Shown: piece after piece, positions 277 to 5,139 of the stretch
How the letters are laid out: every line of letters begins with the position of its first letter
Position numbering within the stretch: the first letter of the stretch is position 1
Assembly (NCBI GenBank): GCA_963807635.1
Contig: CAWEDJ010000018.1
Coordinates: 1 to 30,358 of the forward strand
Source of the DNA: an uncultured cyanobacterium
Lineage (GTDB): Bacteria; Cyanobacteriota; Cyanobacteriia; Cyanobacteriales; Microcystaceae
Length of the DNA stretch: 30,358 nucleotides
Direction: 5' to 3'
Made by a program: the position numbers and the translations under genes
The notes under the pieces: model-generated
Told to the model about the DNA's origin: nothing
Seen by the model: only the letters and a program-made list of their open reading frames with translations
The model's database searches: none

Positions 277-1991
277 CTAATAATAACGACCCGACTTGCG
301 ATGATGAACCGCCGTAACCCCTTCCCGTAAAACCTTTCCCTGCTCCGTTGTGGCATAAAAAACCCAATGATCACCACATTCCAGACGATTGATCACCCGA
401 CATTCCAAATAAGCCAGGGCATCCTCCAAAATCGGTGCGCCATTAGTTGCCGTACTAGTTTTAACCCCATCAAAACGGTCTTCCCCAGGAGAAAAAGGCT
501 TCAGAAAATGCTTCATCAAACCCAAATAATTTCCTTCAGGCAAAATATTTAAAACAAAAGCCGCATCCGTAAAAAGTAAAGATTCGATCGCCCGTTCCTT
601 CGCCACAGAAATCGTTAACCCTGGTGGAGAAAAAGTCGCTTGGGCGACCCAGGAAGCCAACATTGCCCCTTTTAATTCCCCCTGTTGGGTGGTAACAATA
701 CAATTTGAACCCACAATGCGCCCTAGAGCCTGTTCCGTCCGTGCCGATTGGGACTCATTGACAGAAGCCTTCGGTTGTCGAGCTTTTTTAGCTTTCTTCA
801 ACGTTTGGGCAAAATCCGTTCCTGCCTCCTCACAGGTTTTCAGCACTTGATCCGTCGCTTAAACTTCACCCGAATCGCGTCAAACCCAAAACGGAAGCCT
901 GCATCCCGAAATTTGGTTTCCAATAAATCGATCGCCTCTCCACTCCAACCAAAGGAACCGAAAACCCCTACTAACTGACTTTTATCCGCATTGGCAAGGG
1001 TAATCCCCAGGGCCGTTTGAATCGGAGTCGGAGCATGGCCGCCGAGAGTGGGCGATCCAAAAATAAATCCCGCCGATTGGGTAATAGCCGCCTTAATTTC
1101 GTCAGGTTCAGCAACTTCTGCATTGATCGATTCAACCCCGACCCCTGCTTTCGTAATGCCCCTCGCGATCGCCTGGGCAAGAGTCGCCGTATTTCCGTAG
1201 GCAGACGCATAAATCAAAGCCACCTTAAGGTCTTGGGTTTGTTGCGTACTCAACCATTGTTGATATTTGCTCGTTAATTCCGTTAGACCGTAACGCACCA
1301 GCGGCCCATTACAAGGAGCATAGAGAACCGCAGGTTTACTGCTTAATTTTTCTAAAGCCGTTGTGATTTGTTTGGCAGAAGGCGCGAGTAAACAATCAAA
1401 GTAATAGCGTCGATCCTCTTCATACACCGTCCAACCTTCATCTAATACTTGATCGGAACAGACATGGGCTCCAAATAATTTATCAGTAAAAAGAATCTGG
1501 GTAACAGGGTCGTAGGTACACATTTGATCGGGAAAACGAGGATTGGGGGTCGGGATAAATTCCAGTTGATGCCCTTGACCTAAATCCAGACTATCGCCAC
1601 TTTTAATCACCTTGAGGGTAAAGGTTTGATCATCTAAAATTTGCTCCAGGGATTGGGCGGCGGGATTAGAACAAACCAGGGTAATCTGGGGCGCGATCGC
1701 GAGCAAAGCTTTTAAAGTAGTCCCTCTATTGGGATTCACATGGCCCAAAATCAAATAATCCAGGGTTTTGGGGTCAAGGCGTTGGGTCAGGGTTTGCAGA
1801 AAAATATCGGTGAAAGATTCCCCTGGTGGATCAAAAAGGGCGATTTTTTCTGATTGAATGAGGTAACTATTAGCCGTTGTTCCCCGTTGCAATCCGTACT
1901 CAATTTCAAACTTGAGTCTATCCCAGGTGCGCGATCGCAAAACGAGGGTATCTAGGGCGATGGGAAATACTTGTACATCTTTAGCTTTCAT
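277..1991 (-). CDS. flv1: Class C flavodiiron protein Flv1 (beta-lactamase-like + flavodoxin + flavin reductase domains); one frameshift near 846-860
   Basis: RSRTWDRLKFEIEYGLQRGTTANSYLI, non-canonical HVNPNR metal site, flavodoxin YASAYGNT and GSPTLGG motifs, C-terminal GDH...VHHRKSG. ORFs 840..1991 and 277..846 join at RVKFK/..MLKTCEEAG. Confidence 0.92.
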
Positions 1992-2380
1992 AAATTTAGG
2001 TTTGTTTTAGGTTAAAATTAACGATTAATCACAATTGTTCTGATTCAAAAATACTCAAAAAAATAGACAAATTTTGTAGATTATTCAAAGATTGATTACA
2101 AATAAATTGCACTAAAAATCACAATAAAGAGCTTAATCCATCCTGTCAATATCGAAAAATGAAAGCTTATCATCTAGAAAAACAATAGATTTTTATCAGG
2201 ATAGCGTCTCAAAAAATATGATCAATTTCAAGCCCATCAAAATTTTTGTTTTTTAAACATCATAGATCCGAAAGCGACTCTGAATCCTTTATGTTGGCGA
2301 TCGCGGTCGAATCGAGAGCAGAACCCTAACGGTTATTGTAGGTTATTTGATTCGATGATCTATCCCAAGGGAACTCAAGC

Positions 2381-2386
2381 TAGTAT
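2381..2386 (+). promoter_or_regulatory. Candidate -10 element TAGTAT for the structured RNA/toxin-like transcript
   Basis: TAGTAT lies 13 nt upstream of the predicted RNA stem; no clear -35. Confidence 0.35.
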
Positions 2387-2399
2387 TGTGGAAGACAGA

Positions 2400-2485
2400 G
2401 GGGTAATGGGAGCAAGGTTCGACTAACTTCACTCACCGAGCAGAAGTCCCTGATGGGAAGCCGACATCATTGCTCATCCAACCCC
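2400..2485 (+). ncRNA. Candidate structured RNA (multi-way junction; 5' leader or processed sRNA)
   Basis: Closing helix GGGGT/ACCCC + TGG/CCA + GAGCAA/TTGCTC; internal hairpins ACTTC/GAAGT (extended by CTC/GAG) and TGATG/CATCA; GC-rich island in an AT-rich intergenic region. Confidence 0.5.
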
Positions 2486-2518
2486 AGTCACACCGACCTA
2501 AAACTAATTGCTAGTGTT

Positions 2519-2898
2519 ATGTCTAGACGAAAAAAAACCTTCCCCTGCGGCCACAAAGGATACGGACAGATTTGCCACCGTTGTATTCAGGAACAAAGCA
2601 CCTGGGAAGCCAAAAAACAAGAAAAAAATGAATGGCAATCCACTTTTGCTAACGATCCCATCGATTTACGCAATTTACCCAAAAATGTAGTGGTTAAGGC
2701 CCGCTCTATTTGGATGGATTGGCCGATCATCGGGATTATCGCGAATTTCATGGTAAAAGACTTAGGCACGATCGCTTTGTCATCAGTATTCCTGTGACTC
2801 GCCATTATCGGCTAATTTGTCGTGATCAAGGCAGTTTTGTTGCACCAGAAATGGTTATTTCTCACGAAGATTATAATGTCTGTAAACCTGGGGGTTAG
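2519..2898 (+). CDS. Small protein (~126 aa): N-terminal Cys/His Zn-knuckle and C-terminal RelE/ParE/HigB-like domain; one frameshift at 2708-2711
   Basis: MSRRKKTFPCGHKGYGQICHRC...KARSI joins LDGLADHRDYREFHGKRL...ISIPVTRHYRLIC...VISHEDYN if one T is added to the run in tctatttgg; the SIxV..YRLI...HEDY pattern resembles RelE-superfamily toxins. Confidence 0.7.
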
Positions 2899-3044
2899 AG
2901 TTAAATCACTAATTTTCTTAAAACGCGATCACCAAAGATATTTTCCGACTAAATAATCTTTTATAAAAAGCTTAAAATAAAATAATCGAGGATCATAATT
3001 ATATGGATATTTGGGAATTTAGATTAAGAAATTAATTTGATTGA

Positions 3045-3142
3045 TAAGAGGACGAACGCAGTTCAATAAACTCACTGAACACAATTCGCCCCCTACGGAC
3101 ACCCATTCTAATATTTGTGCAGGGGCGTAAGGCTTGCGCCCA
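3045..3142. repeat. Two degenerate GTAGGGGCG...CGCCCCTAC-type REP-like elements
   Basis: gaggacgaacgca...acaattcgccccctac (3048-3096) and gcaggggcgtaaggcttgcgccc (3119-3141; stem GGGCGTAA/TTGCGCCC). Confidence 0.6.
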
Positions 3143-3170
3143 ATAACTTCAATTAGGGATTAGCGCAATA

Positions 3171-3899
3171 ATGATCCAACAACTTTCTCCACCTCTCCAA
3201 ATTGATTACCCCGACAGCGATGGACAACCCATGGCCGATAATACTTTGCAATTTCAATGGATTGTTACCCTCAAAGAAAATCTTGAACTTGAATTTCGCG
3301 ATCGCGCTGATGTTTTTGTAGCAGGTGATTTATTATGGTATCCCGTCGAAGGAAGCAATCAAATTCGTCGCGCTCCTGATGTTTTAGTTGTCCTCGGTCG
3401 TCCAAAAGGTAAACGCGGTTCCTATCGACAATGGCAAGAAGATAATATTACCCCCCAGGTCGTCTTTGAAGTGTTATCTCCTGGCAATACCCTGGCAGAA
3501 ATGGCTCTCAAATGGGAATTTTATGATTATTACGGCGTGGAAGAATATTATCTCTATGACCCTGACAAAAACGATTTGACAGGATGGCAACGTCAAGAAA
3601 ACAAATTAACCGTTATTCTTGATATTGACCAATGGCAGAGTCCCCTTTTAGGCATTCGTTGGCAATTAACTCCTGAAATCTGGCAGATTTTTCGCACGAC
3701 AGGAGAACCTTTTTTTACTTTTTTGGAATTAGACCAACGCTATCAACTCGAAAAACGACGAGCCGAACAAGAAAGCCTTCGAGCCGAACAGGAAAAATCA
3801 CGGGCTGATAATGAAAAAGAGCGAGCGGATAACGCAGAAGCAGAATTGAGTCGTTTACGGGAGCTTTTAGCCGAAAAAAGAATTGATTTAAATGAATAG
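3171..3899 (+). CDS. Uma2 (DUF820) family PD-(D/E)XK putative endonuclease with a C-terminal coiled coil
   Basis: YPDSDGQPMADNTLQF, APDVLV, FEVLSPGN, YGVEEYYLYDP motifs; RAEQE/RADNE repeats in the tail. Confidence 0.93.
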   Translation: MIQQLSPPLQIDYPDSDGQPMADNTLQFQWIVTLKENLELEFRDRADVFVAGDLLWYPVEGSNQIRRAPDVLVVLGRPKGKRGSYRQWQEDNITPQVVFEVLSPGNTLAEMALKWEFYDYYGVEEYYLYDPDKNDLTGWQRQENKLTVILDIDQWQSPLLGIRWQLTPEIWQIFRTTGEPFFTFLELDQRYQLEKRRAEQESLRAEQEKSRADNEKERADNAEAELSRLRELLAEKRIDLNE

Positions 3900-3960: not shown

Positions 3961-5139
3961 ATGCAAATTTATCTAGACTACAGTGCGACAACGCCCCCCC
4001 GCCCAGAAGTGATCGAAACGGTTCAGAAAACCCTGGTCGATGGTTGGGGCAATCCTTCGAGCCTTCATGGATGGGGTCAACGGTCAGCTTTAGCCCTAGA
4101 AACTGCACGTTTACAGGTTGCTAGTTCATTAAACGCGCCCAATCCCGACTCGATTGTTTTTACCTCTGGGGGAACGGAAGCCGATAATTTAGCCATCATG
4201 GGTATTGCGAGACAATATACCCAACCCCAACACATCATCATTTCGAGCGTCGAACATTCCGCCGTTGCCGAACCTGTCCGTTGGCTAGAGAGCAGAGGCT
4301 GGCAAATCACCCGTTTACCCGTGAATCGTCAAGGTCGGGTGAATCCCTTAGATTTAATAGCCGCTATTCAGGTCAATACGGTCTTAATTTCTATTATTTA
4401 CGGTCAAAGTGAAGTGGGAACCCTCCAACCCATTGAAGCCCTGGGAAATATTGCGCGATCGCGGGGCATTTTGTTTCATACCGATGCGGTGCAGGTGATG
4501 GGAAGGGTTCCTTTGGATGTGCAGCGTTTACCTGTAGATTTGGTTTCCCTATCGAGTCATAAAATCTATGGTATTCAGGGAGCAGGAGCCTTATATGTGC
4601 GAGAAGGGGTGGAATTAGTTGCCTTACTCGGTGGTGGTGGTCAGGGACAACGGTTACGCTCAGGCACTCAAGCCATGCCCGCGATCGCAGGTTTTGGAGT
4701 CGCCGCCGAATTAGCCGCTTCTGAAATGGCAGTAGAAATTCCCCGTTTAATCGCCCTACGCGATCGCTTATTTGAAAAATTTGTCGATTCTCCCTTTTTA
4801 AAACCCACAGGCGATCGCCTCTACCGTTTACCCCATCACACCAGTTTTGTCATTACCGATCCCTGTGCCTGTGGTCGTAATGAACCTATTACGGGCAAAA
4901 ACCTCGTTCGTCAATTAAATTTAGCTGGTATTGGCATCAGTGCAGGAGCCGCTTGCAATAGTGGGAAATTAAACCCCAGTCCTGTGTTGTTAGCGATGGG
5001 CTATAGCGAATCAGAAGCATTAGGGGGAATTCGTTTAACGGTTGGTCGAGAAACCACGATCGCAGATATTGATTGGACGGCGATCGCCCTACAGCAAATC
5101 CTAGAACGATCAATGCCCCGATTAGTCGGAGTTTGTTAA
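3961..5139 (+). CDS. iscS: Cysteine desulfurase, NifS/IscS family (PLP-dependent)
   Basis: IYLDYSATTP, GNPSSLH, FTSGGTEA, HTDAVQ, SSHK (PLP lysine), RSGT, SAGAAC (catalytic Cys). Confidence 0.92.
   Translation: MQIYLDYSATTPPRPEVIETVQKTLVDGWGNPSSLHGWGQRSALALETARLQVASSLNAPNPDSIVFTSGGTEADNLAIMGIARQYTQPQHIIISSVEHSAVAEPVRWLESRGWQITRLPVNRQGRVNPLDLIAAIQVNTVLISIIYGQSEVGTLQPIEALGNIARSRGILFHTDAVQVMGRVPLDVQRLPVDLVSLSSHKIYGIQGAGALYVREGVELVALLGGGGQGQRLRSGTQAMPAIAGFGVAAELAASEMAVEIPRLIALRDRLFEKFVDSPFLKPTGDRLYRLPHHTSFVITDPCACGRNEPITGKNLVRQLNLAGIGISAGAACNSGKLNPSPVLLAMGYSESEALGGIRLTVGRETTIADIDWTAIALQQILERSMPRLVGVC

Follow-up and report, generated by a model that had tools for sequence, protein, structure and literature searches.

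What is the 86-nt element at positions 2400-2485 (+ strand) of the window, the 30,358-nt stretch of DNA from an uncultured Microcystaceae cyanobacterium analysed here, that lies just upstream of a gene for a toxin-like protein? The initial annotation had described a cloverleaf-like structured RNA, and had proposed that it serves as an undescribed cis-regulatory leader, an RNA antitoxin or a tRNA-mimic partner of an orphan RelE/ParE-like protein. In the minimum free energy (MFE) structure, the element adopts a Y-shaped fold with a long irregular stem and two hairpins. The three segments of stem P1 recognized by the initial annotation (2400-04/2481-85, 2407-09/2478-80 and 2410-15/2470-75) are complementary in sequence, and the MFE structure extends P1 inward to 22 pairs through 2416-18/2466-68, 2419-21/2462-64 and 2423-24/2459-60, followed by a three-way junction with hairpins A and B. 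Hairpin A (2426-2447, + strand, ACTTC-A-CTC-ACC-GAG-CA-GAAGT), which had also been recognized, is present in the sequence and in the MFE structures of both the window and its relatives. The second hairpin that had been proposed, TGATG/CATCA (2451-55/2465-69), is indeed complementary and has 57% of its cells paired in the relatives, but it is not part of the MFE structure, which contains hairpin B (2448-2457, + strand, CCC-TGAT-GGG).

The fold beats chance, modestly. The MFE of the element is -29.6 kcal/mol, compared to -22.1 +/- 3.3 kcal/mol in 200 dinucleotide shuffles (z of -2.27), with 6 of the 200 shuffles matching its stability, so that the comparison of folding energies called for at the outset comes out in favor of the structure. 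The reverse complement is as stable as the + strand, with a z of -2.28. Within the segment 2396-2540, the element is an independent folding domain. Both the upstream region 2229-2399 (z of +0.99) and the 33 nt between position 2485 and the ATG at 2519, a spacing that had been given correctly, are unstructured. The description as a GC island in AT-rich DNA holds only for the element itself (about 54% GC), since its flank at 2260-2400 already has 44-48% GC and only 1980-2260 drops to 22-28%.

The cloverleaf with a T-arm does not survive this comparison, as the MFE structure is a three-way Y. The 9-mer GGTTCGACT, correctly placed at 2416-24, resembles the T-loop consensus, and the 5' and 3' ends of the element pair like an acceptor stem, two traits in common with tRNAs and with the tRNA-like domain of tmRNA. 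Unlike these RNAs, the element has no T-stem, a three-way instead of a four-way junction and no CCA end: on direct reading, the flanks of TTCGACT (CAAGG and AACTT) are non-complementary and cannot form a 5-bp T-stem. ARAGORN found no tRNA or tmRNA gene in the whole window, and no tRNA or tmRNA row appeared when the region 2150-2750 was compared with Rfam at E values up to 10. A tRNA or tmRNA identity was dropped on these grounds, and tRNA mimicry by the element is unlikely. The search of Rfam 15 with the window gave no match at the gathering threshold. The relaxed search of 2150-2750 returned four weak rows, three of them for snoRNA models and the fourth for a frameshift element; only sR19 touches the element, in a 9-nt overlap at its edge, with a score of 14.2 bits, the gathering score being 45. 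No match was obtained for the loci of four relatives at E values up to 1. As far as Rfam is concerned, no described family fits either the window's element or those of these four relatives.

A probable -10 box, TATTGT (2384-2389, + strand), lies within a GTATnnT motif whose conservation upstream of orthologues extends over many genera. The initial annotation had also placed a -10 box before the element, although it had chosen TAGTAT, to which we prefer the conserved TATTGT. Because the sigma-70 consensus scan of the window does not list TATTGT at 2384-89 as a full site, its role as a -10 box is one that we infer. Transcription would start near 2396, 7 nt after this box, giving a predicted 5' leader at 2396-2518 (+ strand). 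Small parts of the region are contained in 16 metatranscriptome runs, and the contigs of four runs were examined. One contig spans 2396-2861, its start being 7 nt past the TATTGT box, which is a weak hint in favor of the predicted transcription start, and three other contigs, from three studies, link positions 2415, 2417 and 2442 to the coding sequence. Leader and coding sequence are found on the same molecules in RNA libraries, with the reservation that such libraries may contain DNA, whose carry-over is not excluded by contigs. In one run a second contig reaches from 2249 to 2412, so that transcription may also start further upstream. A polymorphic 4-nt indel lies where contigs end (2412, 2415 and 2417), and these ends were for this reason taken as assembly breaks, not as RNA ends. 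The segments 2100-2235 and 2916-3048 are uncovered by the contigs of the four runs, and this absence was not counted as evidence.

Lying downstream of a conserved -10 box and ahead of the ATG at 2519, and joined to the coding sequence in RNA contigs, the element is most likely a 5' leader. Since it also lacks an Rfam match, the proposal of an undescribed leader is supported. The assignment of the start codon rests on the first residues of the protein, MSRRKK, which are nearly invariant among homologues and fix the ATG at 2519. An in-frame upstream ATG at 2453, which would open a 114-aa ORF, was considered and rejected in view of this conserved start and of its loss in the sister genome G231 (locus L023) and in all four RNA runs. 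These sequences carry G2452T and T2454C, and their hairpin-B loop reads TTAC where the window has TGAT, the loop that creates the ATG. The TGAT allele of the window is thus the rare one, and the extended ORF 2453-2797 is not conserved. Around the promoter, we also observed a longer pattern, AGGGA...(C/T)(C/T)(T/A)-GTATnnT-GGA(T/A)ATA (2360-2395 in the window), which is conserved upstream of orthologues of several genera (L027-L146). It is shared although the downstream leaders are unrelated, and may be the site of a common regulator.

The equal folding of both strands and the start of the element about 10 nt after the -10 box would also suit a function at the level of DNA, as an operator or another protein-binding inverted repeat acting on the promoter. 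This seems very unlikely to us: the two arms are imperfect and lie 55-80 nt apart, unlike those of operators, and the element is located downstream of the likely transcription start and is present in RNA contigs.

The gene downstream of the element (2519-2898, + strand) encodes a DUF7682 zinc-binding domain followed by a ParE-like domain. Contrary to the initial reading of 2519-2898 as an open frame, the frame is interrupted in the window, where the T-run at 2709-2711 has lost 1 nt. Reading in frame 1 ends with a stop at 2797, and the remaining C-terminal portion is found in another frame from 2710. The run comprises three T in the window and four T in G231, which has an intact 126-aa frame, and in three out of three RNA runs covering the site. 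We discarded a programmed frameshift at 2709-2711, because relatives and RNA contigs display a plain intact frame; the missing T reflects either an error of the assembly or a pseudogene private to the strain. A flavodiiron-type gene on the minus strand (277-1991) is likewise split, into pieces of 383 aa (ODP and flavodoxin) and 189 aa (flavin reductase) that overlap at 840-846, whereas the sister genome has a single 571-aa ORF (L023, 249-1964). With this second gene also split and whole in the sister genome, indel errors in the assembly are the simplest reading. The occurrence of two likely indels within 3 kb suggests the same.

The N-terminal piece matches Pfam family PF24730 (DUF7682; E 8.1e-15, 54.4 bits for a cut-off of 27) and the piece in the other frame matches PF24732 (ParE_like; E 4.1e-23, 81.6 bits for a cut-off of 24.4), while NCBIfam gave no match for either piece of the gene. 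The AF2 model of the protein has a pLDDT of 83.6. All top Foldseek matches of this model are RelE, YoeB, HigB, YafQ or ParE structures, the best being 3bpq with a weak E value of 0.016 and a probability of 1.00. The search of PDB chains by sequence found nothing (best E value 0.38). The RelE/ParE-like character attributed to the protein is consistent with the ParE_like match and with a predicted fold of the RelE/ParE superfamily, for which the Foldseek E values are weak. Our literature search found no paper naming DUF7682 and, among the papers listed for related terms, none mentioning "ParE-like".

The label of orphan toxin, in contrast, has to be given up for a conserved chromosomal gene. The protein has 508 homologues of similar length; 120 of these, among the matches listed, are 67-98% identical, and all 120 possess both domains. 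Relatives are encoded in 410 stretches of the species-representative genome collection, among them stretches from Microcystis, Crocosphaera, Prochloron, Spirulina and diatom endosymbionts whose genomes measure 3 Mb. A homologue of a class-V aminotransferase is found downstream on the same strand in 49 of 80 loci; its cysteine-desulfurase-like representative in the window occupies 3961-5139 (+ strand; Pfam PF00266, E 7.7e-63). The DUF7682 and desulfurase-like genes are adjacent in many other genomes, and in the window the pair is separated by a gene of the Uma2 family (putative restriction endonuclease) at 3171-3899. There is no ORF of at least 40 aa between 1991 and 2453 on either strand and no conserved cluster of upstream ORFs across the 80 loci, which argues that an antitoxin gene is absent. 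The protein resembles RelE/ParE type II toxins in its C-terminal region of about 85 residues, which matches ParE_like, and in its modelled RelE/YoeB/HigB/YafQ/ParE-like fold. It differs from them by the fusion to an N-terminal CxH...CxxC zinc-binding domain (DUF7682), by the lack of an adjacent antitoxin gene, by its linkage to a cysteine-desulfurase-like gene, and by its conservation across the 120 listed homologues, diatom endosymbionts included. It is a core-like cyanobacterial protein and looks like a domesticated toxin-fold protein.

These properties bear on the proposal that the element is an independent small RNA, either a type III-like RNA antitoxin or a tRNA mimic, that neutralises a RelE/ParE-like toxin. 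The idea draws on the element adjoining the gene of a ParE-like domain and on the likeness of the 9-mer to a T-loop. In type III toxin-antitoxin systems, the RNA antitoxin is made of tandem direct repeats that are processed to units, and a terminator separates the repeats from the toxin gene. Like ToxI, the element belongs to non-coding RNA that immediately precedes the gene of a toxin-fold protein, but TRF detected no tandem array in 2400-2485. A consensus scan of 1900-3300 on the + strand found no terminator, in agreement with the initial annotation, and RNA contigs continue from the element into the coding sequence. The protein, composed of DUF7682 and ParE_like, is not a ToxN/AbiE-type endoribonuclease, and its gene is chromosomal and conserved in a fixed synteny rather than mobile, with orthologues in hundreds of genomes that lack the element. 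Adding the absent T-stem, the three-way junction and the negative ARAGORN result, we regard a neutralising small RNA as extremely improbable.

In its own genome the element is single-copy, the 13 other matches covering 14-19 nt with E values above 3, and a dispersed repeat or MITE was rejected on that basis. Among 401 genomes of the order, a DNA search gave a full-length match only in G231, with 94% identity. At E values up to 0.01, 14 of the 401 genomes had a match, which in 12 of them was 22-38 nt long; these short matches, none of which lies beside a homologue of the protein, were treated as chance. Comparison with blastn of 161 upstream regions (the window and 160 ortholog loci) found the element in seven, namely the window, L023, L024, L103, L104, L025 and L026, whereas L030 and L105 have only part of its 3' half in common. 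A covariance model built from the seven sequences with the MFE structure recovered nothing but these seven training sequences when applied to 100 sources (the window and 99 of the 160 ortholog loci). It matches five of the six genomes of the genus and none of the 83 others in the family. The conservation upstream of homologs that a widespread RNA would have displayed is not found, and from these searches the element appears to be restricted to one genus, which is Snowella-like.

A one-genus distribution, next to a protein that is so well conserved, fits a neutral leader, in which the fold would have come about by chance from an imperfect inverted repeat, within non-coding DNA that evolves fast, and would play no part as RNA. 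The leaders of other genera point the same way, as they share GTATnnT and are otherwise wholly different, from about 33 nt (Crocosphaera) to more than 150 nt. Covariation does not speak against it either. In the alignment, which has low power with no more than seven sequences, four of them 88% or more alike, 85.6% of the cells are paired under the MFE structure compared to 84.6% in column shuffles, 65 of 500 of which reach the same level, and two pairs show double changes, a number equalled in 60 of 500 shuffles. For the structure of the initial annotation, the corresponding values are 78.7% and 78.9%. Covariation in the helices is therefore not above shuffles; in hairpin A, 89% of the cells are paired over the seven sequences, with no double changes in the aligned columns. 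Of the 33 pairs that make up the window's fold, 32 are Watson-Crick in the window itself, 25 in L104, 21 in L025 and 15 in L026, so that the fold decays with divergence. The z values of the six relatives (-1.47, -1.21, -0.49, -0.84, -1.45 and -0.75) are near those of shuffles, and their architecture resembles that of the window, as is expected from sequence similarity. The choice of strand by G-U against A-C cells is uninformative, with 13 versus 9 cells and no strand bias, and the two strands of the window are equally stable.

Several observations nevertheless weigh against a leader free of constraint. In five of seven comparisons, conservation of the element exceeds that of third positions of the coding sequence by about 10 points, for instance 73% versus 63% to L025 and 62% versus 52% to L026. 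The z is negative in all seven homologues. Most relatives preserve the CCC/GGG stem of hairpin B, with variation in its loop (TTAC, TCAC, CTAT). L026, which lacks hairpin B, retains a hairpin A made of other letters. A set of 21 long leaders of orthologues with the same promoter, hand-picked by eye and not mutually independent, has a mean z of -1.38, with 7 of the 21 below -2.

A further trace of the stem is given by deletions of 4 nt in both of its arms. The segment 2412-2415 of the 5' arm (+ strand; GCAA, or AGCA/CAAG owing to alignment ambiguity) is deleted in L024, in L103 and in one RNA contig. Its partner in the 3' arm, 2470-2473 (+ strand; TTGC or TGCT), is deleted in L023/G231, in L103 and in contigs of two RNA runs. 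The deletions (around 2411-15 and 2470-74) remove exact pairing partners, and L103 has both of them while L023 and L024 have one each. Haplotypes with neither, either or both deletions exist, several of them coexisting in environmental samples, and those with a single deletion, which leaves 4 nt bulged out, have persisted in genomes as well as in environmental RNA. The match between the two deletions is the most notable, though no more than suggestive, sign of selection on the fold, and shows that the two arms "see" each other. It could reflect selection on an RNA helix through compensatory loss or, equally, template switching in a quasipalindrome. The latter is an established mutational route, and it is the one by which the deletions would have arisen in a neutral leader. 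On balance, we hold a purely neutral leader to be somewhat unlikely, though it is the most probable of the alternatives.

The remaining reading is a specific cis-regulatory RNA, in which the Y domain is bound by a factor, most attractively by the encoded protein itself in an autoregulation, or by a metabolite. The RelE/YoeB/HigB superfamily acts on RNA, and the modelled fold of the protein belongs with these structures (best match 3bpq, as above). RNAalifold favors an alternative pairing of 2416-24 with 2486-94 (GGT..GACT / AGTC..ACC), and a variant of the cis-regulatory reading may involve a switch between P1 and this pairing. The alternative is accompanied by a single double change, A2422G with T2488C, found in L104 only; one event in one sequence is too thin a basis to build on. 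An expression platform is also lacking: besides the missing terminator, the fold of 2396-2540 has only a weak A/U-rich hairpin at the AUG, with 4-5 bp (CTAG/CTAG). Conservation that stops at one genus, the absence of an Rfam match, covariation at the level of shuffles and a fold that decays with divergence leave the specific cis-regulatory leader of the initial annotation unsupported. We consider such a regulator unlikely, and ligand sensing by the element is unlikely as well.

A further observation in favor of cis-regulation concerns the same place of the leader in other genera. Sequence-unrelated and often stable hairpin inserts occur at this position in L034, L107, L064 and L065, as well as in L028, L032, L049, L110 and L043. 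In the first four, the insert lies about 110 nt before a ATAGGCTG motif. The basal pairings of the inserts are conserved and short, for example GTGGGT / ACCCAT, in which C-to-T changes keep G-U pairs, and GGTAAAG / CTTTACC. The subgroups of related leaders are tiny, comprising an AAAGACT type and the ATAGGCTG type with n=5. Over a broader sample, the 120 nt before the ATG of 93 non-redundant orthologues have a mean z of -0.68 compared to -0.36 for a control stretch, a difference that is not significant (Wilcoxon p 0.13), and a structured leader common to the whole family was rejected. It would be a more specific, and to our mind improbable, form of cis-regulation if the Y domain were the site through which the zinc-ribbon/RelE-fold protein controls its own mRNA. 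If this were the case, the hairpin inserts of the Microcystis-, Pannus-, Cyanothece- and endosymbiont-type leaders (Chroococcales) would be functional equivalents of the element.

Taken together, the data seem to support most favorably, if tentatively and with somewhat less than an even chance, a folded 5' leader of the mRNA of a conserved gene with a putative generic stabilising role. As the element is genus-specific and its sequence weakly constrained, a generic effect is the most likely one. In this scheme, the element would make up roughly the first 90 nt of the untranslated 5' region in the DUF7682/ParE-like mRNA. With a transcription start near 2396, 7 nt past the TATTGT box, the leader would fold at once into the Y domain, closed 4 nt from the 5' end and topped by two hairpins, and 33 unstructured nt would follow before the ATG. 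Such a structure at the 5' terminus may limit decay that depends on the 5' end, and would in this way set the half-life of the mRNA and its level of translation. Leaders with a 5'-terminal stem-loop are known to stabilise bacterial mRNAs, as does the 5' UTR of E. coli ompA. The predicted leader shares with the ompA type a structured domain a few nucleotides from the predicted 5' end and, after it, a stretch without structure leading to the start codon, and neither a terminator nor a ligand-like conserved core is present. It differs in consisting of an irregular stem of 22 pairs with two hairpins, in its limitation to one genus, and in having a 5' end that is predicted.

On the reading as a folded, generically stabilising leader, the element is one more lineage-specific structured 5' leader, and a new class of RNA is not indicated. 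The value of the result is mostly corrective, in that the supposed orphan toxin is a widely conserved cyanobacterial protein. This antitoxin-less DUF7682/ParE-like protein, in which zinc-binding is combined with a RelE/ParE fold and whose gene is linked to a desulfurase-like one, is more interesting than the leader. If the protein did control its own mRNA, the element would represent a leader that evolves fast and serves the autoregulation of a domesticated toxin-fold protein lacking an antitoxin, and if the leader is the RNA target of the protein, it would offer a first handle on the function of this domesticated toxin-fold protein.
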